Positions 7,047-34,459 of a stretch of 35,041 nucleotides of DNA are shown here, in pieces. This DNA comes from a virus (Duplodnaviria > Heunggongvirae > Uroviricota > Caudoviricetes): IMG/VR virus record IMGVR_UViG_2778261545_000002. One strand, 5' to 3'. The translations under genes were made by a program, and so were the position numbers. Positions within the stretch are counted from its first letter, which is position 1. The number at the start of each line of letters is the position of its first letter. The notes below the pieces were generated by a model. That model searched no databases and was not told the origin of the DNA. It worked only from the letters and a program-made list of their open reading frames with translations.

Positions 7047-8237
7047 TTAATTGCTGTTAACCGAAGTGACCAGATTTGCCAGGTATTTATCGGTGATACG
7101 CTGGCGCAGGGTCAGGTTTTCGAGAGGAGGCACCGGGGTATAGTCGTAGTCGATATACAGTTTTCCGGCCTTGAGGGTTTCCGCATCGTTGGATTCTTCG
7201 CTGAACCAGCAGGTCGCATCCACGATATAGCCGTTTGTTTTCAGCTCACGGAATTTGGCATTGATGCCGTCAACGATGTCGCGAATCAGCGTTGCGGTGA
7301 TGGGCTTGTCCACCGCCCACATGTGCGCCTCAGCCATCGTATCGGCCAGCACCTGCGCGGTGCGGGTGTAGTTTTCAAAGAGGAAAAGCGGGTCATCAGA
7401 GCAGGTACGGTTACCCCAGAATCGGAAACCGTCACGGCGAATCAGCGTAGTGACGCCTGACTCGTTAAGCAGGTCAGCATCGGTGCCGGACTCCTGCAAA
7501 TCCCAGAATACAGATGCGCTGATGCCGGTAACACCGTTCACCCCGACATTGGACAGCGTTTTATGCCAGCCCTGCTCCTGGTCGATTCTGGCACGCAGAC
7601 CCAGCGCACGGGCGGTGGCATACGCGGTGGCGGTGGTGCTGGTGACCGTATCCCATGCGAGGAAATCCGGCCAGATGACCATCAGCTCACGCTGGCTGAA
7701 ATTCTGGCGGTAGGCTTTCACCTCGGAAATGGTCTTACAGCCCCATGCGCTGATATACCCGAAAGCGCGCAGCTTCTGACAGACTGATGCCAGTGCAACA
7801 GCCACCTCTTTGGTGTCCAGTCCCGGCACACCGAGAATACGCGGTTTAACACCGGTTACCGACTCCGCCGCCAGCAGGGCTTTCAGTCCGGTGTACTGAC
7901 CGTTTTCGTCGGTGGTGCCGATGATATTGGATACGGTCTGCGCGAGTTTCGTTTCCTCGTCGTCGCCGGTGCCGTCTTCCACACGCACAACAACGGTGAC
8001 CGGTTTTGACTGGTCAGCGATGGCCTGCAACGATGCCGCCAGCGTGCCTTTTTTACCAGCCTTTGCAATTGCACTCTGCACATTGGTAATCAGCACAGGT
8101 TTATTGAGGGGGAAGGTTTCCGCATCCGCATCGCTGGCCGTGCAGACCAAGCCGACAATGGCAGTGGATACGGTGGAAATGACGCGGGTGCCGTCGTTAA
8201 TCTCCAGCACCTGCACGCCGTGATGATAGTCACTCAT
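7047..8237 (-). CDS. FI: Contractile tail sheath protein FI (396 aa)
   Basis: Length and position match P2 gpFI; begins MSDYHHGVQVLEINDGTRVI... Confidence 0.88.
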   Translation of the reverse strand: MSDYHHGVQVLEINDGTRVISTVSTAIVGLVCTASDADAETFPLNKPVLITNVQSAIAKAGKKGTLAASLQAIADQSKPVTVVVRVEDGTGDDEETKLAQTVSNIIGTTDENGQYTGLKALLAAESVTGVKPRILGVPGLDTKEVAVALASVCQKLRAFGYISAWGCKTISEVKAYRQNFSQRELMVIWPDFLAWDTVTSTTATAYATARALGLRARIDQEQGWHKTLSNVGVNGVTGISASVFWDLQESGTDADLLNESGVTTLIRRDGFRFWGNRTCSDDPLFLFENYTRTAQVLADTMAEAHMWAVDKPITATLIRDIVDGINAKFRELKTNGYIVDATCWFSEESNDAETLKAGKLYIDYDYTPVPPLENLTLRQRITDKYLANLVTSVNSN

Positions 8238-8424
8238 CCGTTTAACTCCGTGGTTAATGGGTGCAACTATTTTCTGTTGGGCAGTGCATGAGACGCTATT
8301 TGACCTGGCTGGTCAGTGGATGAAACAACAGACAAAGAAAAAGCGGGTAATCCGCCTGCCTGTCATGATTTGCACTCACTCATTTTCCAACTGACAATTT
8401 ACATAGCCCAAACGCTATCAAATC

Positions 8425-8454
8425 TGACAGTCTGCTTTGAGCGAGGAGCAGACT
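8425..8454. repeat. Hairpin-forming element, left copy (8-bp stem AGTCTGCT/AGCAGACT, 10-nt loop), at the left GC-to-AT boundary of the cargo island
   Basis: Inverted repeat read directly; 23 of 30 positions identical to the copy at 10529..10558, with a compensatory stem change. Confidence 0.6.
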
Positions 8455-8623
8455 TAACCTTTTAGAGTGTAATTTTCCAAGAAATATAGCATTATCAAAT
8501 TAGCAAAAGGCATTAGATGATTTTATATTCATTTCATTAGCCGCAAGTTAGGTATGGACCGATGAGAGATGATTACAGAAATCAGTCGGATCATTTTACA
8601 GTACTTTATGAGTGTGGATTGCT

Positions 8624-10420
8624 ATGAGTAAAACCTACCAAGAAATTATTACAGAACTGATTGATCGCATTTATCAAAAGAAGAATACATCAGAAACTAC
8701 TAAGATCATATTGAAAGCACACTTTACTCAGACATCTTCTAGCAGAAACTTGACCTTAGATACGCTGGGTAAACTACCTGAACTCAAGAAAGAGGTCACG
8801 AGAGAAAGAGCACGTCAGATCATATCAAAATTCTTAAATCAAGACTTGCCGTCAGAACTAAGTCGGCTCAACCGAGGCTTGGTAGCAGGTGATACGATTA
8901 CCCTAGCTGCGAAAACTGACCTTATTCAATTGAAGAAATTGATTGAAATATTAATCGGAAAAATAACGACCACTAAAAAACCAGTATTTTCAAATAAAGT
9001 CCAAAGCACTCTTATAGCAGCAGGTGTAATTGATAGTAACATTTATCTTCCTATAGTTACTCAGTTAGCAAAATCATTCGAAATAAATGCACATTTCAAA
9101 TTTCATGAATATAATGGACATCAAATCATACTGGAAGAAAATCATAATCCCAAATCCATTACTAGCGATTTAATCACATATGCCGGAAAGATATCAACGT
9201 ATTTTGGTGGTTTATTTTCAATAGAAAAACTTGCTGTTTGTTCATGGGAGTCAGACCCTCCTGGTTTTATTAGGGAAATTCCTGATGAAATTAAGGTGCA
9301 ATATATATCTGACTTAATTTCAACTGAAGAAGATTTTTTATCTATTTCTAATGGACGTTTTTATGCTTTCACGTCTCGTGACGAAAGAGTTAGTCGAATT
9401 CTCAAACCAATTTTTATTCATTATAAAAACCCACTAAAAGTTGAAAGAGTTATATCTGCTTTAAAAAGGGCCCTTACACACAACTTCCGTCGTAGTGCAG
9501 ATGCCCGTCAACCCCCCTGCCTAGAGCTTCTAGAAAGCGCCGATGGTGCTCTGGACGATTATTGTTTGAAAACTGGATTACTACAAGAGTCAACACCCGG
9601 TTATAGAATACCTGGAGATAGCCTTTATTCAGAACTCCAATTGGAAGATGTCAGTGGTACTATCCATTATCAAGTTATTGCCTTAAATGCTATAAAATCA
9701 AATGGTGGCCCCTTAGACTCAATGAGCATTGGTAGGGAATTAAAAGGGAAAATCCCGCAAGCTTTCAAATCATTGATTTTTAGTTATCCAACCTTGTATT
9801 ACAAAGAAGGTGGCGGGAGACGAAATGATTACTACAAACCACTTGATGATGAATATATTCCAACCAAGCAAGTGGCTCGGCCTATCGATACCAGAATGGA
9901 AAGAATAGATAGTATAAGAAGAAAAATAACAGACATCATAAGCGAATTGGATTCACTAGATGTGCTGGGAACCTTTTTAAGAAAGACTCGTGCAGAACAA
10001 GCATTACTTCGAGAATACCTGCTCCTTCAACAATCGCTGTTATATAGCAATGAAAATAATGTAGGGGTCTGTGAGATTTGCGGAAATTCATGGCCGCATG
10101 CTATTCTCATTGCTGCGCATGTGAAACCTAGATCTAAATGCACACATGAAGAGCGAGCAGATTTCGATAACATAGCAATGTTGCAATGTGCAATATGTGA
10201 TTCACTTTTCGAAAATGGTTTCATTGCCATTCGTTCAGATGGAAAAGTTGCAATTAGCCGAGATAAAAAAATGACCACACACCTTGCGCAAATGTATTCT
10301 ACAATCGAAAGAAGAACCATTCCTTACGTCAACGGAAACACAAACCGTATGAAATACATACAATACCATTGGGTGAATATATTCAAAGGTGAAAGTTCTT
10401 TATTTGATATTAAATCGTAG
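8624..10420 (+). CDS. Cargo protein in the P2 Z/fun hotspot: N-terminal sigma-70 region-4-like HTH plus C-terminal HNH (4-Cys, AHxxP-type) nuclease motif; candidate anti-phage defence or abortive-infection nuclease
   Basis: AT-rich ORF on the opposite strand to the flanking late genes. N-term ...TLDTLGKLPELKKEVTRERARQIISKFL resembles the sigma-70 r4 HTH; C-term CEICGNSWPHAILIAAHVKPRSKCTHEERADFDNIAMLQCAICDSLFENGF fits a C-x2-C...H...N...C-x2-C HNH. Start is ambiguous between GTG 8612 (track) and ATG 8624; neither has a strong Shine-Dalgarno. Confidence 0.7.
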   Translation: MSKTYQEIITELIDRIYQKKNTSETTKIILKAHFTQTSSSRNLTLDTLGKLPELKKEVTRERARQIISKFLNQDLPSELSRLNRGLVAGDTITLAAKTDLIQLKKLIEILIGKITTTKKPVFSNKVQSTLIAAGVIDSNIYLPIVTQLAKSFEINAHFKFHEYNGHQIILEENHNPKSITSDLITYAGKISTYFGGLFSIEKLAVCSWESDPPGFIREIPDEIKVQYISDLISTEEDFLSISNGRFYAFTSRDERVSRILKPIFIHYKNPLKVERVISALKRALTHNFRRSADARQPPCLELLESADGALDDYCLKTGLLQESTPGYRIPGDSLYSELQLEDVSGTIHYQVIALNAIKSNGGPLDSMSIGRELKGKIPQAFKSLIFSYPTLYYKEGGGRRNDYYKPLDDEYIPTKQVARPIDTRMERIDSIRRKITDIISELDSLDVLGTFLRKTRAEQALLREYLLLQQSLLYSNENNVGVCEICGNSWPHAILIAAHVKPRSKCTHEERADFDNIAMLQCAICDSLFENGFIAIRSDGKVAISRDKKMTTHLAQMYSTIERRTIPYVNGNTNRMKYIQYHWVNIFKGESSLFDIKS

Positions 10421-10524
10421 ATCTGTATCCAGATATAAGTAAGAACTAGGGCTCTAAACCCTTTATAGTATTGAGGGATTATTGAGAAATATTAATAAAC
10501 GTAATATCAATGCTCTTTTGATGC

Positions 10525-10582
10525 AATTTGACAGTCCGCTTTTGGCACAGAGCGGACTGTCAGATTAGGCTTTACTCTGTGC
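10525..10582. promoter_or_regulatory. Two mutually exclusive hairpins between the converging cargo gene and G: A (16-bp stem 10525..10540/10551..10566) and B (9-bp stem GGCACAGAG 10544..10552 / CTCTGTGCC 10574..10582)
   Basis: Inverted repeats read directly; hairpin A contains the right copy of the repeated ~30-bp element (10529..10558). No clear U-tract on either strand, so a classical intrinsic terminator is uncertain. Confidence 0.5.
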
Positions 10583-10618
10583 CATAGATATGTAAGCTCA
10601 CACCAGAGTTCATACAAC

Positions 10619-11146
10619 TTATTGCGGCATTTCCGGCCATTCAGGATTTGCAGGATCCACACGACTGACCACAACGCTGTAGCGTTCCCAAGCCTCCAGC
10701 CGTGTGCGCTCCTCCTCTGTTGCCATGTTCAGCCTGACAGCGCGCTCCAGCGGCAAAATCACGGATTCAGCATCTGCAAGAAGTCTGGCTTTCCGATTTT
10801 CTGCCTGCTGCTGCAATTCCTCTGCCGTATAAATTCGTTTAATCACTGTACCGTCCTTAAACATCCAGCCCCCTGAAATGTCCGCCCGTCGGTTAGCAGT
10901 AATATCCGGCACTTCAACAACACTTAATCCATCCGGTCTGATAGCTGTCACATCCTTTTCCACATAGCGGATAATATTATCTTTGTCGTACGCTATTTTT
11001 ATCGTGTCATCAGCAAAATACTTTTGTTCTTCGTACCAGTTCTTACCATCTTCTGAAAAAAACCAGACAACATCAAAGTCCTTTGTCAATTGATATTGTT
11101 CAACCGTTTTTGGATTACCTGCCGTTATATTTATCAAATGCTGCAT
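10619..11146 (-). CDS. G: Tail fibre assembly chaperone G (175 aa)
   Basis: 175 aa as in P2 gpG; immediately downstream of H. Confidence 0.8.
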
Positions 11147-11149
11147 AAA

Positions 11150-13468
11150 TTATACCTGCGCCACGTTATACCAAGTCCCGTTAATGTATTTCTGCACCGG
11201 TCTGTAATATACGCCACCAATGTTATCGGCAGAGTTTGAGCCGGTATCCTGAACAATAATGCCGGAATATACACACCCGGACGGTGCCTGATGTGTCCAT
11301 GTCATGCCATTGTTCGCAGGTTTGTATGTGGCAGCACCACCAAGCCGGATATCCCGGACATAGCGTGAATCAAAATTACTATAGTTAGATGGTGATACCT
11401 GCCCGTTAACAGCAAAAGTGATGCTGTTATCTGTATTTCTCTGACTGTAAAAATGCCAGCCTGCATCATCACCTAATTCAGCCACCACCGGACGACTTGA
11501 GTTTCCCCACAAATTGAATGCGGCTTCCTTCGTGGATGTATTGCTGCTGCTGACCGTGAACTTTTTCCCGCTACCGGCACGTACTTTGGTACTTGAGACA
11601 ATATCACCTGTAACACTCAGGCCATGCCCCATTGACACTCCGCCATTGGCGTTATTGATAGTCAGCGGCCTTAAACCGTTCCATGTCCCAAATTTATCGC
11701 CAGAGGCCGTCAGCATTAAATATGTGCTGCCGCCATCATTCCTGATAAAGAATCCATAATTGCCATAAGCAATGCGCAGACCATTAGCACTGAGTGATGT
11801 AATCTCACCTCTTGAACGGAGACCATAAGCGGAGCTGAGTGATAATTCTTCCTGAGCATCAGTATTACCAGTCGCCCAGCGAACTACCCCGCCCTGTACT
11901 GTTTCATGCCAGACAGTGTCTCCTTCTCCACCACGAAACTTTCTGAGATATTTTTTGCCGCCTCTGGTGCCTGAACATAAGGCCGTAGACATATAGGCAT
12001 TCTGGCTACCGCCGTCCTGATTAATCGTTCCGGTCATTTCGTCGCCCTGACGATTCCAGTCACGACGCCAGCCGGGGGAGTAGCCGTCCCCATGATTAAT
12101 GTAAGTGAATTGCGCGCTGGTTGTACCGCCACCACTTGATGTTGTCGGCGTGGTCACTCGGATAGTGATTGCAGATTTAATTCCCATGACCTCGACGACA
12201 CAACCAGCCAGGTGGATATCACCACATCCGGTATCCGTAATGATTTTGTTATTTGCATATGACCAGGAGCCTTTGCACATCCAGTACGGATGATTAAATG
12301 CACCACGGGAATCCAGCCATTCAATAAACTGAGCGGTTGTCCAGTTTCCGGCTTCAGTACTCAAAGCGCCGCTATAAGCACGACAGGCACCGATATTTTT
12401 CGTGAAGGTATCCTTTCCCGGAATATCCGCACCATTCTGATCTTTCTGAAGACGTTTTTCAGCATTGTCATAGGCAGACTTCACCGCTTTTGGTGTTGCG
12501 GCCAGTGTTTCAGAATCACTATTGGTGGCGCTACTTAGCTGGACAAGACCTTTTCGCGCGGTGGTGGCATCCTGTGCAGTGTATTTCCCGTTAGCAAGGT
12601 CATACGCAGCCTTTACCGCCTTTAGCGTTGCCGCAAGCGTTTCAGAATCACTGTTGGTGGCGCTACTGAGCTGAACAAGGCCTTTTCGCGTTGTGGTGGC
12701 GTCCTGTGCAGTGTATTTCCCGTTAGCAAGGTCATATGCTGCCTTTACCGCTTTCGGCGTTGCGGCGAGCGTTTCAGACGTGCTGTTGGTGGCACTACTG
12801 AGCTGGACAAGGCCTTTTCGCGCTATGGTGGCGTCCTGTGCGGTATATTTCCCGTTAGCAAGGTCATACGCGGCCTTTACCGCTTTCGGCGTTGCGGCCA
12901 GTGTTTCAGACGTGCTGTTGGTCGCACTGCTTAACTGAGTAAAACCTTTTGCGGTCAGCGAGGCGTCCGGGTGACGTCGTGACTGTTCGTGCTCTGCAAT
13001 TTTGTCATCAACGTAATCCTGCGTCGCCATCACCGTTGTGGTGTCAATGGTCAGCTCCACTGAGGCCACACTGCTGACGATGATGACCATGCGGCAGGTC
13101 TGCGAACGCCCTGAGCCTTCGGCAAGTGCGGGTTTATAACTTTCGGCCATGTTCGCCACGGCAATTAACGTTCCCGCATCATCGTACAGGCCAAGCTCAC
13201 GCATCCAGAAACCGCCCACCTCCGGCGGAATAACCAGCTCTGCGATAATATAATTACTGTTTCGTTTGTCCTGGCTGATTTTGTTCAGCGCATGTCGCCA
13301 GACTTCATGGATAAGCCCGGTCTGTCCGGCATCCGGGACAGGCAATTTACCACCGCCATCCCCGACGGCCATAGTGGTAATGTTGACCTTCCGCCCTCCC
13401 GGTGCGGTTGCCGCTGCCAGCTTTGCTGCACCGGCAGTGGTGATAACGGTTCTGAATTTTGTGCTCAT
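11150..13468 (-). CDS. H: Tail fibre protein H (772 aa) with internal tandem tail-fibre repeats
   Basis: Position between I and G; contains about 3.6 copies of a 44-aa repeat KGLVQLSSATNS[TD]SETLAATPKAVKAAYDLANGKYTAQDAT; longer than P2 gpH (669 aa). Confidence 0.85.
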   Translation of the reverse strand: MSTKFRTVITTAGAAKLAAATAPGGRKVNITTMAVGDGGGKLPVPDAGQTGLIHEVWRHALNKISQDKRNSNYIIAELVIPPEVGGFWMRELGLYDDAGTLIAVANMAESYKPALAEGSGRSQTCRMVIIVSSVASVELTIDTTTVMATQDYVDDKIAEHEQSRRHPDASLTAKGFTQLSSATNSTSETLAATPKAVKAAYDLANGKYTAQDATIARKGLVQLSSATNSTSETLAATPKAVKAAYDLANGKYTAQDATTTRKGLVQLSSATNSDSETLAATLKAVKAAYDLANGKYTAQDATTARKGLVQLSSATNSDSETLAATPKAVKSAYDNAEKRLQKDQNGADIPGKDTFTKNIGACRAYSGALSTEAGNWTTAQFIEWLDSRGAFNHPYWMCKGSWSYANNKIITDTGCGDIHLAGCVVEVMGIKSAITIRVTTPTTSSGGGTTSAQFTYINHGDGYSPGWRRDWNRQGDEMTGTINQDGGSQNAYMSTALCSGTRGGKKYLRKFRGGEGDTVWHETVQGGVVRWATGNTDAQEELSLSSAYGLRSRGEITSLSANGLRIAYGNYGFFIRNDGGSTYLMLTASGDKFGTWNGLRPLTINNANGGVSMGHGLSVTGDIVSSTKVRAGSGKKFTVSSSNTSTKEAAFNLWGNSSRPVVAELGDDAGWHFYSQRNTDNSITFAVNGQVSPSNYSNFDSRYVRDIRLGGAATYKPANNGMTWTHQAPSGCVYSGIIVQDTGSNSADNIGGVYYRPVQKYINGTWYNVAQV
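12470..12949. repeat. Tandem 132-bp repeat array (about 3.6 copies) inside H
   Basis: Near-identical 132-nt units visible in the DNA (e.g. 12550 vs 12682); they encode the 44-aa repeat on the minus strand and a mirrored repeat in the antisense track ORF 12693..12938. Confidence 0.85.
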
Positions 13469-25524: not shown

Positions 25525-27285
25525 ATGACTGTACGTCTTGCTTCAGTTTCAATTAGCAACTTTCGTTCTTGTAAGGCAACATCGGCTATTTTGCGCCCCT
25601 TTACTGCTTTAGTTGGTTATAATAACGCAGGAAAATCAAATATCATCTTAGCAATTAAGTGGCTGTTAGATGGCTCTTTGATTTCAGAATCAGATGTGTA
25701 CGATCCTACACACCCCGTATCCGTTGAAGGCGTTATTCAAGGTATAACAGATGATACTCTATCTTTGTTAACAGAAGAGAATCAACAAAAAATAGCTCCG
25801 TTTATAATTGACGGGACTCTTACCTTTGCAAGAAGACAGGAATTTAATAAGGAAACAGGAAAAGTCAAAAAAAGTCTGGATGTATATGATGGCACCACGT
25901 GGAAGAAAAACCCTGGCGGCATAGATGGTGCAATTTCCAATATATTTCCGGAACCAATTCATATCCCTGCAATGTCTGACGCCGTCGAAGACTCAACAAA
26001 ATGTAAAAATACGACCACAATAGGAAAGATACTTTCCGCAATTGTTTCTGAAATAAAGCAAGAGCACGAAGAGAAATTCTCAAAAAATATATCAGAAATA
26101 GGTAAATATCTTTCTCACAACGGTGAGAACAGATTAGAAAGCCTTAATAAAATAGACTCGGGTGTAAATAAAAAAGTAAACCAATTTTTTCCTGACGTAA
26201 GTGTAAAGTTACACTTTCCCACACCGACATTAGATGAAATATTTAAATCCGGAACCCTGAAAGTTTTTGAGTCTCGGGAAGATGAACCAGTAATGAGAGA
26301 TATCAGCCGATTTGGTCACGGAACACAACGTTCCATTCAAATGGCATTAATTCAATACCTGGCCGAAATAAAAAAAGAAAACAGCGAATCAAAAAAATCA
26401 AATACTTTAATTTTCATTGATGAACCTGAGTTATATTTACACCCTTCAGCTATTAATTCTGTCAGAGAATCACTTGTCACATTAAGTGAATCAGGGTATC
26501 AGGTTATAATATCAACTCACTCAGCCAGTATGCTTTCTGCAAAGCACGCAGCAAATGCGATTCAGGTTTGTAAGGATTCTAATGGAACCATAGCAAGGAA
26601 GACCATATCTGAAAAAATCGAAGAATTATATAAGTCTTCATCACCGCAATTGCACTCAGCATTCACACTATCAAATTCATCATATTTCTTATTTTCAGAA
26701 GAAGTTTTGCTTGTTGAAGGAAAAACAGAGACAAACGTCCTATATGCACTTTATAAAAAAATTAACGGACATGAACTCAACCCAAGTAAAATCTGCATTG
26801 TTGCCGTTGACGGTAAGGGTAGTTTATTTAAGATGTCACAAATCATCAATGCCATTGGTATAAGAACAAGAATTCTAGCTGATTGTGATTTCTTATCAAA
26901 CATCCTATTAACAGAGCATAAAGACTTACTTAGTACTGAATGTGATAATCTCTTGACTGCTTTGACTGAATCAATCAACTCAGGCGAGCTTAATTTAAAT
27001 ACAAAAGTCACTACTTTTGAGTCATTCAAAAGCATTTCAAGCAAAGACTTCATCAAAATATGTAATCATGAAAAAACACAAAAACATATACATGAAATCC
27101 ATCAAAAATTGAAAGATAATGGAATCTATATATGGAAATCCGGTGATATAGAAGCTGTTTATGGATTTGGTAAAAAACAAACTGAATGGGATAGTCTTTT
27201 AGATTGTTTATGTGATGAAAGCAAAGATGTTAGAGCAGTAATAAAAAAATATGATGAAATGGAAGATTTCATTAAATGGATTTAA
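25525..27285 (+). CDS. old: OLD-family ATPase/Toprim nuclease (P2 Old-like, 586 aa)
   Basis: Walker A GYNNAGKSN, Walker B-like LIFIDEPELYLHP, Toprim-like LVEGKTE and ADCDF motifs; AT-rich; RBS AAGGA upstream of the ATG; same length and position as P2 old. Confidence 0.8.
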   Translation: MTVRLASVSISNFRSCKATSAILRPFTALVGYNNAGKSNIILAIKWLLDGSLISESDVYDPTHPVSVEGVIQGITDDTLSLLTEENQQKIAPFIIDGTLTFARRQEFNKETGKVKKSLDVYDGTTWKKNPGGIDGAISNIFPEPIHIPAMSDAVEDSTKCKNTTTIGKILSAIVSEIKQEHEEKFSKNISEIGKYLSHNGENRLESLNKIDSGVNKKVNQFFPDVSVKLHFPTPTLDEIFKSGTLKVFESREDEPVMRDISRFGHGTQRSIQMALIQYLAEIKKENSESKKSNTLIFIDEPELYLHPSAINSVRESLVTLSESGYQVIISTHSASMLSAKHAANAIQVCKDSNGTIARKTISEKIEELYKSSSPQLHSAFTLSNSSYFLFSEEVLLVEGKTETNVLYALYKKINGHELNPSKICIVAVDGKGSLFKMSQIINAIGIRTRILADCDFLSNILLTEHKDLLSTECDNLLTALTESINSGELNLNTKVTTFESFKSISSKDFIKICNHEKTQKHIHEIHQKLKDNGIYIWKSGDIEAVYGFGKKQTEWDSLLDCLCDESKDVRAVIKKYDEMEDFIKWI

Positions 27286-27468
27286 TTTAATCTGATACGA
27301 TTACAGCGCAGTACTAAACCAATAGTGATAGGCTGTGCTGTTCCCAAAGATGGTGATCTCAAAATCAGAATGTGTTATAAATTAGCCAATCAAAAAACCT
27401 AAGCACACAAACAAATCAATCATTACGATTTACAATGATGAAAATATTATGATACAAAAGGAGTTGAT

Positions 27469-28230
27469 ATGAATAACATGGAGATTTTGAAAGCCGTAAA
27501 AGCTGGAATGAAAAAGTCAGCCAAAGCTACTTATTTAATGGATTTCAGTTCCGGTGGAAAAATAAACACTGAATATGTAGCTACCGTATCTATAGGTCAA
27601 TCCTTGATTAAAATAACATCTTTTCATCATGGTGATTACAAGATCATATTTGAATACCATACAAATAAATTCATTAATGCAACAGTCCCTTTATCGAAAC
27701 GGCATGACCCCAACAATATATTCTCAAGACACATTATCAGAAAAAATGCAAACACAAAAAGACCAGGCAGAATCGATATTGCCATATTGGACAGTAGATC
27801 ATTTTTCGAGACTCCTATATGTGCAATAGAAGTTAAAGGAAACAACCCTAGTAAAAAACTTTTATTTTCTGACATAAGAAGAAATCTTGAATACTTTAAA
27901 CACACAGGTCCTACGGGGAGTTCAAGCCTTGAACTAGCATTAAACTGTTTATTCCATTCATACAATGATTCAACTAAAAAAAATTACTGCACTACAATCC
28001 ACCATAAGGAAGACATGATAAGGAAATTAAAAAACAAATATAAAAAATACATATCTGAATTAAATAAAGAAATTCCAGATGATATATCTGTTACAATTGA
28101 TGTTTTTACAGCAGCAGAGCATTTACTATCTCCTGATGCTGACCAATATGAATACGAATCACATATAGATGACTTACATTTGACGCTTGGCGTTATGGTT
28201 ATATTCGAACGAAAATCGATACTCAATTGA
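27469..28230 (+). CDS. tin: Tin-like protein (253 aa), assigned by position; possible PD-(D/E)xK-like motif
   Basis: AT-rich ORF directly after old, where P2 carries tin; RBS AAAGGAG; GRIDIAILD...ICAIEVK resembles a D...E-x-K nuclease core, but this is a weak motif-level call. Confidence 0.5.
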   Translation: MNNMEILKAVKAGMKKSAKATYLMDFSSGGKINTEYVATVSIGQSLIKITSFHHGDYKIIFEYHTNKFINATVPLSKRHDPNNIFSRHIIRKNANTKRPGRIDIAILDSRSFFETPICAIEVKGNNPSKKLLFSDIRRNLEYFKHTGPTGSSSLELALNCLFHSYNDSTKKNYCTTIHHKEDMIRKLKNKYKKYISELNKEIPDDISVTIDVFTAAEHLLSPDADQYEYESHIDDLHLTLGVMVIFERKSILN

Positions 28231-28598: not shown

Positions 28599-30880
28599 TT
28601 CCACTCCATTACTGTTGAGAATCCCGGCCACTCATCAGCGACCGGATACGTGAATTTTTTCCCGTCATAATTTACGGTCGCGCCACGCGCCAGCGCCTCA
28701 AGCTCCCATCGCTGCGGCCTGATACCGTTCTGAGCAAGGTCAACGCGGATACGGGTAATTTGCATTCTTTCCGACCGGGTCAGTCTGGCCGATGGTGCAA
28801 TTTCATGTGGTTTTAACGGGCTTCCGTTTCTTTGCTGACGGTTTGGCGTTCTCAGGTCGTGTTTTAATGCACCCCTGAGCGCCCTCACGACCTCCGGGTC
28901 ATTCCATTCGATAACACCATCATCAACCAGATTAAGCACTGCTGCGGCGTGTTCAGAAGGCGTGGGAGCCGGTGACGAAGTATCACCACTGGTGAGCTTT
29001 CCACAGTTATTGACAGGACTCCGAGGCGCGGCGATGCCGCTTTTTAAAGTCAAAGGCTCAACGACCGGCACTTTCGGAACAATGCGCCAGTTCGTCGTTC
29101 TGGTGATATGAATATGACGCGCGCCGAGATGCGGCGCGTAAATGCCGACCACTCTCTCGACTTCTTCCTCGTACTCGTTAACTTCATCCGACGGACTACG
29201 GGCGACCCTGACAGTCTGACAATCGCGCGGGACATTTGCCCCACCCTGCGCGCTGATATACAGCGCAAAATCGCCACTGTCTGCGGCAGCGCGTGCAGCC
29301 TCGACGCGTTCGTCAAACTCATCAGCAATGCTGACGCCGCGAGGTAATTTGCGTAGTTCACGGTAAGCCCCCATTGTCGGCAGGCCAACCGTTTTAAATT
29401 GCGGAATGCGCCACGTTGACGCCCATGCGGTAACAGCCGCGGCAGTGTCTTTCAGCGGCCTGCCGGTATCGTTATCGAGCTGACCATCCAGTGCATAGCC
29501 GTCGATGTTTTTTGAAATGTATTTCGCGATATACCCCGCAGCACCGCCCCGGTTAAGGTGTTTTGCCTGAAAACGGTTTCGCGCGGCTCCTCTTTCGTCG
29601 CCATCCTCTTTGAGCGCATAGCGACGCATGATTTCGATAATCTGGTTACGCTGGCGCGGATTACAAAAAAGCATCATATGCCAGTGCGGCGTTCCGTCGT
29701 GGTGTGGCTCGACGACACGCAAACCGTAGACCTGTAAATCATTATCCTTGAATGCCGTGCGCATCAGGCTCCAGATACGGCAGAGATAACGCTGCGCATC
29801 CTTTGGATTAAATGCCTCATCGTTCCAGCCGTGATTTAGCTGGACGGTTTTACTTTCGCCTTTTCTGACCTGACGTGTCGGGTGATACTTTGACGGCGCG
29901 GTCAGCGTGATAAACATCCCCACATCACCCTCTGCTGCGGCGTAACGCTCAATACCGGCAATGGTGTTCATCAGCTCCATCCGGCGAATTTCAGGATTAG
30001 AAATACTGCCCATCACCTTACTGATAAGGTCGATGCGCTCGCCGGTTTCCCTGTTTTCAAGGTCACACGCTTTAAGAAATTCCAGATTTGCCTGGCGGCG
30101 CGCACGCACATCACGAATGGCATGTTTACTGGCATAAGGAGAACGGTCTTTATTGACCTCCCCGACAGCTATCAGTAACGCCTCATGCCAGCGCATACGC
30201 TGGCCTTTAAGCTGATGAGTCCACCACTCATCGTTAAACAGGCGGGCAATGGCAGAATATGCCTGCCTCGTGGTCATCTGTCCTTTACGGTATTTTTTCC
30301 AGTAGAGCGGGGAAATATTGAAAGCACGTGCAGCGCCAGCAACATGACCATAGAGGTGAGCCTGCGCCTCATCCGTAAACAGCGATTCTTTTTCGCCATG
30401 TGCATCAACCCAGGCATCGCAGAGTTCCTCATACATCATGAAAAGCTGCGATGAGATACGGGCAGCAAACTTTTTCAGCTCCTTGTCATTCATTCCCGGC
30501 AGGCGCGCATAGTGGTCACGCTCTGCCAGAAACAGCAACGACGCGTCGGTGTTCATTTCATGGCGCTGATTCACACGCTCAATGCGCGGCCATAAACGAC
30601 GCTGAAAAGTGGATGTGAGGAAATAAAACCCGTGCACCGGGCTTTTATTGCGCCGGATGTAGTCATAACGTGAAGTAAACAGCGAGCGCAAAAAGTAAGG
30701 CAGGCGGTTAATCGTGGATAAAACACCTTGCACCTGACGCATCTCGTCACGTGTAAGGGGTCTTTCGCGCCCGACAGCCTCGCGTGGCGCGTTCCATGCA
30801 TAAGCACCGGTAAACGTCTTACCGGTGCCTGCGGCAAATGCTGACGGAGGGACAAAACGCCCGGAGGCTTTAACGGCCAT
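28595..30880 (-). CDS. A: Replication initiation protein A, rolling-circle nickase (761 aa)
   Basis: From the internal Met MAVKASGRFVPPSAFAAGTG... the length is 761 aa, as P2 gpA; sequence matches my recollection of P2 A over its length. Confidence 0.88.
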   Translation of the reverse strand: MAVKASGRFVPPSAFAAGTGKTFTGAYAWNAPREAVGRERPLTRDEMRQVQGVLSTINRLPYFLRSLFTSRYDYIRRNKSPVHGFYFLTSTFQRRLWPRIERVNQRHEMNTDASLLFLAERDHYARLPGMNDKELKKFAARISSQLFMMYEELCDAWVDAHGEKESLFTDEAQAHLYGHVAGAARAFNISPLYWKKYRKGQMTTRQAYSAIARLFNDEWWTHQLKGQRMRWHEALLIAVGEVNKDRSPYASKHAIRDVRARRQANLEFLKACDLENRETGERIDLISKVMGSISNPEIRRMELMNTIAGIERYAAAEGDVGMFITLTAPSKYHPTRQVRKGESKTVQLNHGWNDEAFNPKDAQRYLCRIWSLMRTAFKDNDLQVYGLRVVEPHHDGTPHWHMMLFCNPRQRNQIIEIMRRYALKEDGDERGAARNRFQAKHLNRGGAAGYIAKYISKNIDGYALDGQLDNDTGRPLKDTAAAVTAWASTWRIPQFKTVGLPTMGAYRELRKLPRGVSIADEFDERVEAARAAADSGDFALYISAQGGANVPRDCQTVRVARSPSDEVNEYEEEVERVVGIYAPHLGARHIHITRTTNWRIVPKVPVVEPLTLKSGIAAPRSPVNNCGKLTSGDTSSPAPTPSEHAAAVLNLVDDGVIEWNDPEVVRALRGALKHDLRTPNRQQRNGSPLKPHEIAPSARLTRSERMQITRIRVDLAQNGIRPQRWELEALARGATVNYDGKKFTYPVADEWPGFSTVMEWK

Positions 30881-33445: not shown

Positions 33446-34459
33446 ATGGCAATCAAAAAACTCGATGATGGTCGATATGAAGTGGACATCCGCCCTACTG
33501 GACGTAACGGAAAACGCATCCGTAGGAAGTTTGATAAGAAAAGCGAAGCTGTCGCTTTCGAAAAATACACGTTGTACAACCACCACAATAAAGAATGGCT
33601 ATCAAAACCAACAGACAAACGACGTCTGTCGGAACTGACACAGATCTGGTGGGATTTAAAGGGTAAACACGAAGAGCATGGGAAATCTAATCTTGGAAAA
33701 ATTGAAATCTTCACAAAAATAACGAATGACCCATGCGCATTTCAAATCACGAAATCCCTTATCAGCCAGTACTGCGCCACCCGAAGAAGTCAGGGTATTA
33801 AACCTTCGAGTATCAATCGTGATTTAACATGTATTAGCGGCATGTTTACAGCCCTGATTGAAGCGGAGTTATTCTTTGGTGAGCACCCTATCAGAGGGAC
33901 AAAGAGGCTTAAGGAGGAAAAACCAGAAACAGGCTATCTCACACAGGAAGAAATTGCCTTACTGCTTGCAGCACTTGACGGCGACAATAAAAAGATTGCG
34001 ATTCTTTGCCTGAGTACAGGAGCACGTTGGGGAGAAGCAGCTCGTTTGAAAGCAGAAAATATCATCCATAACCGCGTCACGTTTGTTAAAACGAAAACAA
34101 ACAAACCACGCACCGTCCCGATCTCAGAGGCTGTTGCCAAAATGATCGCGGATAACAAACGAGGTTTTTTATTCCCTGATGCTGATTACCCTCGCTTCAG
34201 ACGAACAATGAAAGCAATAAAACCGGATTTGCCAACGGGGCAAGCCACACATGCACTAAGGCACAGCTTTGCCACTCATTTCATGATTAATGGAGGAAGT
34301 ATTATCACGCTACAACGGATACTAGGTCACACGCGGATTGAGCAAACTATGGTTTACGCTCATTTTGCGCCAGAGTACCTTCAGGACGCCATTTCTCTTA
34401 ATCCGCTAAGAGGTGGTACTGAGGCCGAGAGTGTCCACACAGTGTCCACAGTAGAGTAA
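33446..34459 (+). CDS. int: Tyrosine integrase (337 aa)
   Basis: Same length as P2 Int; C-terminal R...HxxR...Y catalytic pattern (ALRHSFATHF...GHTRIEQTMVYAHF); adjacent to attR. Confidence 0.9.
   Translation: MAIKKLDDGRYEVDIRPTGRNGKRIRRKFDKKSEAVAFEKYTLYNHHNKEWLSKPTDKRRLSELTQIWWDLKGKHEEHGKSNLGKIEIFTKITNDPCAFQITKSLISQYCATRRSQGIKPSSINRDLTCISGMFTALIEAELFFGEHPIRGTKRLKEEKPETGYLTQEEIALLLAALDGDNKKIAILCLSTGARWGEAARLKAENIIHNRVTFVKTKTNKPRTVPISEAVAKMIADNKRGFLFPDADYPRFRRTMKAIKPDLPTGQATHALRHSFATHFMINGGSIITLQRILGHTRIEQTMVYAHFAPEYLQDAISLNPLRGGTEAESVHTVSTVE

Follow-up and report, generated by a model that had tools for sequence, protein, structure and literature searches.

Paired hairpins around the exchangeable cargo of a P2-like prophage are probably the inner segments of the ends of a fossil IS481-type transposon

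Introduction

P2-like prophages hold a major store of anti-phage systems (PMC9122126), and for the variable P2 loci Rousset et al. (2022; PMC9122126) cite Nilsson et al. (2004) without proposing a mechanism. A review (PMC8987985) attributes the inverted repeats flanking the Z/fun locus of phage P2 to Nilsson et al. (2004), and phages and bacterial genomes alike have been reported to carry these repeats. How cargo is acquired and exchanged at these hotspots has so far been left open or put down to 'site-specific recombination'. Here we analyse a stretch of 35,041 nucleotides from the IMG/VR record IMGVR_UViG_2778261545_000002 (the whole of it is called the window below), a P2-like prophage whose minus strand carries genes T, E, FII, FI, G and H. 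Between FI and G lies an AT-rich island with one plus-strand open reading frame (ORF; 8624-10420), and its position is the classical Z/fun site. Two hairpin-forming repeats border this island.

An earlier, sequence-only reading of the window had taken these repeats for hairpins under structural selection that serve as cassette-exchange sites or insulating terminators. Comparison of many loci leads us to a different account: the paired hairpins are probably the inner 36 bp of the inverted ~86-bp ends of a fossil, non-autonomous cargo transposon of the IS481 type. For the earlier reading our results are mostly corrective, as the repeats are real but already reported, inverted, and neither RNA-selected hairpins nor terminators. 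Inverted repeats at the FI-G locus were already known; their link to transposition may be new. In the open-access literature we found no text on 86-nt ends, 7-bp duplications, empty sites or an IS481 connection, which Nilsson et al. (2004) itself might contain, and literature searches for the repeat sequence strings and for IS481 cassettes returned nothing relevant.

Results and Discussion

Both repeats lie where they had been placed, copy A (TGACAGTCTGCTTTGAGCGAGGAGCAGACT) at 8425-8454 and copy B (TGACAGTCCGCTTTTGGCACAGAGCGGACT) at 10529-10558, with 23 of 30 positions identical by direct count. A degenerate pattern derived from the two finds only these two matches in the window, against 0.00 expected (100 shuffles). 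The copies also coincide, as claimed, with the composition edges of the cargo, GC content being ~0.55 outside, 0.31-0.42 between the copies and up again in gene G. A repeat search stretches the match to 34 nt (8421-8454 / 10525-10558). An inverted alignment of the copies (79%) is equal or better because copy B is itself palindromic, and the homologous orientation across the family is inverted, not direct. Copy B is a near-perfect palindrome with 16-nt arms (10525-10566) and folds at -28.8 kcal/mol on the plus strand (z = -7.0) and -22.6 kcal/mol on the minus strand, with z about -6 to -7. The fold of copy A (-14.1 kcal/mol, z = -1.3) falls within the range of shuffles.

We compared the FI-G regions of 16 annotated P2-like phages with differing cargo (hypothetical proteins, HAD and NUDIX hydrolases, SMEK and others), and a pattern scan of viral contigs yielded 120 more loci, with both flanks present in 88. 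A conserved element was found at each junction in nearly all loci compared. In the 16 annotated phages and ~70 further viral contigs, ~45 different cargoes of 0.9-5.9 kb are bracketed by both elements, which bears out two expectations of the earlier reading: the elements are kept at the junctions while the cargo varies, and the cargo, defence genes included, is swappable. On the FI side the plus strand reads AATCTGACAGTCTGCT-TTGAGCGA-nn-AGCGGAC-nTT, and on the G side the minus strand reads AATCTGACAGTCCGCT-CTGTGCCA-nn-AGCGGAC-nTT. Each side keeps its own conserved loop, and the FI-side copy on the plus strand matches the G-side copy on the minus strand. The ~45 cargoes start directly past the conserved segment, where conservation stops at one fixed nucleotide: just past position 35 on either side, two positions suffice for the information content to drop from 1.2-1.4 bits to ~0.1 bits.

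The hairpins are, however, not free-standing. Past them homology runs outward for ~50 nt more, up to a sharp outer boundary at TGTATTAGCTCAGAC, and each hairpin is the inner part (36 nt) of an end of ~86 nt. Ends from 52 flank contexts align over ~86 nt free of indels, and every element has one L-type (left) and one R-type (right) end. In the window the element spans 8371-10616, its ends facing each other inverted, and the features of the locus are as follows.

7047-8237, minus strand: FI (tail sheath), flanking backbone.
8341-8357, minus strand: canonical intrinsic terminator, AGGCGGATTACCCGCTT then TTTCTTTG, called by a terminator scan, 14 nt outside the L end.
8364-8370: left copy of the 7-bp duplication, CATGATT (CCTGATT in most P2-like phages), degenerate.
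8371-8456, plus strand: left (L-type) end, ~86 nt, TGCACTCACTCATTTTCCAACTGACAATTT...AATCTGACAGTCTGCTTTGAGCGAGGAGCAGACTTA, defined by fixed-length alignment, outer boundary and information drop.
8421-8456, plus strand: inner conserved 36 nt of the L end, holding hairpin A (8425-8454), defined by conservation across loci.
8457-10530: AT-rich cargo, GC 0.31-0.42, not homologous to any cargo seen in other P2-like phages.
8624-10420, plus strand: cargo gene for a 598-aa protein with an HNH nuclease domain at its C-terminus only (Pfam HNH_2).
10525-10566, minus strand: inner conserved segment of the R end (10531-10566) with a window-specific cargo-side extension, holding hairpin B, a palindrome with 16-nt arms.
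10531-10616, minus strand: right (R-type) end, ~86 nt, TGTATGAACTCTGGTGTGAGCTTACATATCTATGGCACAGAGTAAAGCCTAATCTGACAGTCCGCTCTGTGCCAAAAGCGGACTGT, defined by family alignments.
10617-10623: right copy of the 7-bp duplication, ACTTATT, which includes the gene G stop codon.
10619-11146, minus strand: G (tail fibre assembly), flanking backbone.

TGTA... opens each end, and the motif (G/A)ATCTGACAG stands at two places in it, about +18 and +51. The latter copy of this end-repeat motif is the 5' arm of the hairpin (AATCTGACAG in hairpin A), and a short inverted partial copy, AGCRGAC, follows it and makes the stem. The long stem of copy B is due to its cargo-side extension; the extended 3' arm (AGCGGACTGTCA) occurs in only three surveyed loci, on the R side in the window and L071 and on the L side in L067.

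Phages of other kinds, integrative elements and genomic islands also have cargo bracketed by the same L/R pair. It is found downstream of a tail-fibre gene in another myovirus, with CBASS-type cargo (anti-phage signalling based on cyclic oligonucleotides; L026). In L116 it follows a gene for tail-fibre assembly, in L098 it lies in an integrative element and brackets pPIWI-nuclease cargo, and it also occurs next to integrases in tRNA-linked islands, among them the leuX island of O157:H7. When species-representative genomes were scanned with the 15-nt tip of the element, more cargo elements emerged in Erwinia, Pectobacterium, Pantoea, Rahnella, Budvicia and others. Consensus L ends of the P2 type and the non-P2 type are identical at 35 of 36 positions in the inner segment and at 31 of 50 in the outer part; over both sides, identity is 92-97% for the inner 36 nt and 62-74% for the outer 50 nt. 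Two pairs of loci (L034/L050 and L116/L085) share homology from the outer edge of the hairpin to 40-65 nt into the cargo and have unrelated outer ends, which puts mosaic breakpoints at the hairpin's outer edge. Such cargo-proximal stretches of 40-65 nt were all the cargo sequence that P2-type and non-P2-type elements had in common, and no whole cargo was shared between them in our sample.

Some members depart from this plan. The left ends of L056, L092 and L179 lack the 3' arm of the hairpin and run instead into a common sequence, ...GCTTTGAGCTGTGAGTTCAACGGGTCGATGCAAC, so the hairpin is not obligatory in every member. In L031 (2332-2571), and also in L058 and L119, the P2-type right end is faced by an extra end whose tip is intact (TGTATTAGCTCAGACCTTATCTGACAGG...), only 240 bp further in; a solo end or a nested insertion may account for it. 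Facing tips can also lie very close together, ~520 bp apart in Phytobacter (L220, 2452-2972), where the conserved hairpin segment follows neither tip, and ~990 bp apart in Budvicia (L208, 1100-2090). These short pairs may be members with little or no cargo that resemble MITEs (miniature transposable elements with inverted repeats).

Direct repeats of 7 bp, different in sequence from site to site, border the ~86-nt ends. Target duplications are perfect (7/7) for AATAATT, GCTAACT, CATTAAT and CATAAAT, and match at 6/7 positions for GGTTATT/GTTTATT, TATTAAC/TGTTAAC and TATGAAA/CATGAAA; at the P2 locus the match is 4-5/7. Empty sites were sought in E. coli genomes with a synthetic query that joined the FI flank, a single 7-mer and the G flank. 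A contiguous empty locus was present in 10 of the 1700 E. coli genomes that carry such a P2-like locus, and FY26, EC556 and M45 hold empty P2-like prophages. Empty loci read ...terminator-TGT-ATTTATT-(G stop), and occupied ones ...TGT-CCTGATT-element-ACTTATT-(G stop). Gene G in the empty loci runs directly into a terminator of the 8341-8357 type; the insertion therefore fell between the G stop codon and G's own terminator.

A second empty site was recovered outside the P2 lineage. The integrative element of isolate F719 is the empty counterpart of L098, with GAGGCTAACTGGATG when empty and GCTAACT-element-GCTAACT when occupied. At this site the empty sequence GAGGCTAACTGGATGTTAGCC becomes GAGGCTAACT, 4.15 kb of insertion and GCTAACTGGATGTTAGCC, and the insertion is into a terminator hairpin. 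A search of E. coli for the empty site of L065 gave no match. Insertions recur in or beside intrinsic-terminator hairpins downstream of genes, at L098 (207-213), L116 (about 8346-8352), L128/L026 and the P2 locus; one such target is the loop or stem of AGAGGCTAAC-TGGAT-GTTAGCCTTTTTT.

A candidate source for the ends came from the tip scan, which also returned many copies of a 1201-bp insertion sequence (IS; for example L256:4554-5754), some of them at contig ends. Its ends start TGTATTAGCTCAGACCTGATCTGACAGTTACC, and it encodes a transposase with rve and HTH domains that NCBIfam assigns to the IS481 family (1e-85). It occurs in E. coli, Salmonella, Klebsiella and Serratia and duplicates 7 bp, with 7/7 matches for TTTAAGT and CTTACTG and 6/7 for two more. 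Duplications of this length flank cargo elements at no fewer than seven (at least 7) independent sites (6-7/7), and the target form nnTWAnn is common to the IS and the cargo elements. Compared with the IS inverted repeat, the outer 30 nt of the non-P2 cargo-element consensus are identical at 28/30 positions for L and 26/30 for R. No ORF for an IS481-type rve/DDE transposase lies between 8371 and 10616, and none was seen in the other cargoes examined. The cargo element may have been mobilised in trans; a candidate IS is present in the same host range.

Several points weigh against this origin. The termini of the window lineage match the IS repeat at only 18-20/30 positions, and the two copies of the window's own duplication agree at only 4/7; the case for transposition at the P2 locus therefore comes from better-preserved relatives and from the empty sites. 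In the match with the IS, the search seed fixes the first 15 nt, which leaves positions 16-30, with 13/15 matches, as its independent part. Beyond ~30 nt the ends of the IS and of the cargo element are unrelated (7-11/56), so the actual mobilising enzyme may have been a different relative; the second motif copy is inverted in the IS and direct in the cargo element. No autonomous element with 86-nt hairpin-bearing ends was found among ~260 loci. Finally, homologous recombination alone does not account for the single-nucleotide precision with which new cargo enters.

On balance, we still consider an IS481-type cargo transposon the probable source of the ends. In an ancestor of the P2-like phages, the element would have inserted between the G stop codon and the terminator preceding the FI operon, duplicating 7 bp. 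Its end repeats would be putative binding sites for an IS481-type DDE transposase acting in trans, and the inner 36-bp segment, at first a subterminal transposase-binding repeat, may have been kept as a homology anchor for cargo exchange. Because its extreme termini have decayed, the element is probably immobile in P2-like phages. The P2-specific outer halves go with all ~45 cargoes, from which we infer that replacement crossovers fell within or inside the shared inner segment; the inner repeats may likewise provide shared homology for cargo swaps among phages, integrative elements and islands.

A stronger version, for which we see only a modest chance, is that the inner 36-bp palindromes are dedicated exchange sites for an IS481-type transposase or recombination function, forming an integron-like network of defence genes across Enterobacterales. 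The proposal of cassette-exchange sites in the sequence-only reading survives in that the repeats do border swappable cargo, but they are the inner part of ~86-nt ends with 7-bp duplications and not sites that stand on their own. Were the stronger version true, one network would join the transposon-derived cargo slots of P2-like phages with those of other myoviruses, tRNA-linked islands and integrative elements, and the diversification of the P2 defence hotspot would have a mechanistic account.

It seems to us rather improbable that the hairpins are core-type sites for a tyrosine or serine recombinase, which would swap cassettes by strand exchange in the ~10-bp spacer, the 3' arm moving with the cargo. 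This is the first of the two options in the sequence-only reading, and also the one ascribed to Nilsson et al. (2004). Their build does resemble a recombinase core, with inverted arms of 7-16 bp around a ~10-nt spacer; the two spacer positions before the 3' arm vary with cargo class together with that arm, while the 5' arm and the proximal loop are constant, and the junction is nucleotide-precise in ~45 cargoes. Some copies adjoin integrase genes in islands, and the review cited above states that the inverted repeats flanking fun 'enable site-specific recombination' (PMC8987985). Yet no recombinase gene travels with the element, and the sole integrase of the P2-like phages lies ~23 kb off. Recombination between two inverted sites would invert the cargo rather than excise or exchange it. 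The 86-nt ends, variable 7-bp duplications and empty sites are the signature of DDE transposition rather than of site-specific integration, and the 5' arm repeats a motif that is also present at the terminus and in the IS481-family inverted repeat. Nor do the sites behave as integron attC sites: they are inverted, with no integron-type core motif, no linked recombinase and no associated IntI seen, and past the stem only 'nTT' is conserved, followed by zero information.

We think it unlikely that the hairpins are RNA elements, either intrinsic terminators or 3'-end stabilisers, that would shield the late tail operons from the cargo and the cargo from late transcription. Copy B folds strongly on both strands (-28.8 kcal/mol on plus, -22.6 on minus), and gene G lies upstream of the hairpins, the FI promoter region downstream. 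Neither of them has a T-run, though, and the terminator scan calls neither, finding instead the canonical terminator that adjoins at 8341-8357; the proposed role as insulating terminators thus falls away. Copy A is no stabler than shuffles (z = -1.3), the long stem of copy B is confined to three loci, cargo orientation is unbiased, and Rfam gave no family match to the hairpins, only sub-threshold noise.

The pairing data point the same way. The sequence-only reading had regarded the one stem difference between the copies as compensatory and hence as a mark of selection on the hairpin structure. In the window the two copies do literally hold T-A and C-G, but the 136 distinct hairpins show no covariation at this position (12/29), with T-G in 52, T-A in 15, C-G in 42 and C-A in 17 (Fisher p = 0.42). 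The 5'-arm base is fixed (T left, C right), and the 3'-arm base, on either side, is G about three times as often as A. Mismatches are frequent (C-A in 17 and G-A in 26 of the 136), and the stem is kept through sequence conservation of its arms, even with different flanks and hosts.

Further pairings were considered and rejected. In R ends, the upstream 9-mer GGCACAGAG can pair with the loop sequence CTCTGTGCC as a second helix or pseudoknot, and one variant (L011) appears compensated, which would favour an RNA element, but uncompensated double mismatches also occur (L078). The corresponding pairing of CGCTATCAAA with TTTGAGCG in L ends is weak, and an H-type pseudoknot would need longer loops. 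More likely, the apparent second-helix pairing reflects repeated DNA motifs. Strand-specific G-U wobble is inconsistent as a sign of RNA, the L side having T-G on the plus strand and the R side C-A on its own strand.

A chance likeness of two AT/GC boundary sequences, which the mere two copies in the window and the weak hairpin of copy A might suggest, can be dismissed, with 0.00 matches expected in shuffles and the same sequences at the same junctions in >100 independent loci.

We also looked for likeness to other described sites. Action of the P2 replication initiator A, an HUH nuclease, on the hairpins was rejected: the nick sequence of the origin shares only CTGTCAA with them, with no extended similarity. 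The sequence that we take to be the P2 origin nick site (GCGCCTCGGAGTCCTGTCAA) has an exact copy at 29010-29029 on the minus strand, inside gene A. Resemblance to ERIC, dif, gix/hix, the sfx site of the shufflon (GTGCCAA) and Tn3/Mu ends appears confined to short motif coincidences.

The window's own cargo is present in 1 of 5426 complete E. coli genomes; this genome, E. coli SBF45, is alone among them in matching the whole region, at 100% identity, and is probably the source of the window. Besides its C-terminal HNH domain, the protein has weak matches to PADLOC HNH and type II restriction endonuclease models, to the HNH structure PDB 6yex and to an NCBIfam model for phosphorothioate-DNA restriction HNH proteins. 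On these weak matches the domain most resembles the HNH nucleases of phosphorothioate- or modification-dependent restriction enzymes; the protein's N-terminal ~450 aa have no recognisable domain. Other cargoes include CBASS, a pPIWI-associated nuclease, a PARIS-like fusion, DarT and metabolic genes. Cargo orientation (22 vs 32) is unbiased, as expected for symmetric ends. A promoter within the ends that drives the cargo was considered and rejected, as inspection gave no convincing sigma-70 match and orientation shows no bias. Among the cargoes examined, transposases were found in L104 only. This largest P2-type cargo (5.9 kb) holds a DDE_Tnp_1 transposase and an HTH-only transposase fragment (8321-9514, 11950-12690), which are secondary IS insertions within the cargo.

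Elsewhere in the window, the host gene trhP at the left (1-1362) and a tyrosine integrase near the right (33446-34459) mark the limits of the prophage. The tail fibre protein H (11150-13468, minus strand) contains, at about 12500-12950, ~4 tandem units of ~42 aa (...TAQDATxARKGLVQLSSATNSxSETLAATPKAVKAAYDLANGKY...). A second GC dip (0.365-0.37) at 10900-11100, outside the island, covers the 5' part of G near the 3' end of H and suggests mosaic tail-fibre sequence. Beside replication gene A, at 25525-28230 on the plus strand, lies the second variable locus of P2, the old/tin region. It encodes an OLD/ABC-ATPase-like protein, which weakly matches the model for the retron Eco8 effector, and holds a 253-aa ORF for which no family matched; neither a hairpin copy nor a transposon tip was found there.

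Conclusions

In conclusion, our study offers a mechanism for the origin of the FI-G slot that is concrete and can be tested, namely DDE transposition that duplicates 7 bp, and would place cargo exchange at a defined 36-bp sequence. Intact relatives of the FI-G element occur in other phages, integrative elements and islands. The combination of an L-type and an R-type end also offers a search handle for new defence genes, which can be found by taking the intervening sequence.

Among known systems, integron attC sites and cassette arrays likewise consist of imperfect palindromes that border exchangeable single-function cassettes with precise junctions. Integron sites, however, are direct and IntI-dependent and have RYYYAAC/GTTRRRY cores, which the sites of the cargo element lack. 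The ends of Mu, Tn7, Tn552 and IS21 resemble those described here in their TG... tip, in repeated binding-type motifs over ~90 nt and in being non-identical. Their duplications measure 4-8 bp (5 bp in Mu and Tn7), and their transposases are of the MuA/TnsB type and work with an ATPase partner; genes for neither were linked to the cargo element.

Mobile insertion cassettes (MICs), transporter IS and MITEs have IS-related terminal inverted repeats, passenger genes, no inner transposase and a target duplication, and occur at several insertion sites in low copy number, all as in the cargo element. The latter differs in that its ends are unusually long (~86 nt) and asymmetric (L versus R types), share only ~30 nt with the IS and have an inner third better conserved than the tip, and in that one fixed copy in P2-like phages has swapped its cargo dozens of times. 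With the 1201-bp IS481-family IS it shares the terminal ~30 nt (TGTATTAGCTCAGACyTGATCTGACAGTT, 26-28/30), the 7-bp duplication, nnTWAnn targets and a subterminal palindromic arrangement of the TCTGACAG motif; unlike the IS, it carries no rve/DDE transposase of its own.

Another close counterpart is the Z/fun inverted repeats of 2004, which have in common with our element the G-FI locus, the inverted arrangement around a lysogenic-conversion or defence gene, and copies in bacterial genomes. Where the reading cited for those repeats is site-specific recombination, the ~86-nt ends, duplications, empty sites and IS481-type terminus described here point to transposition.

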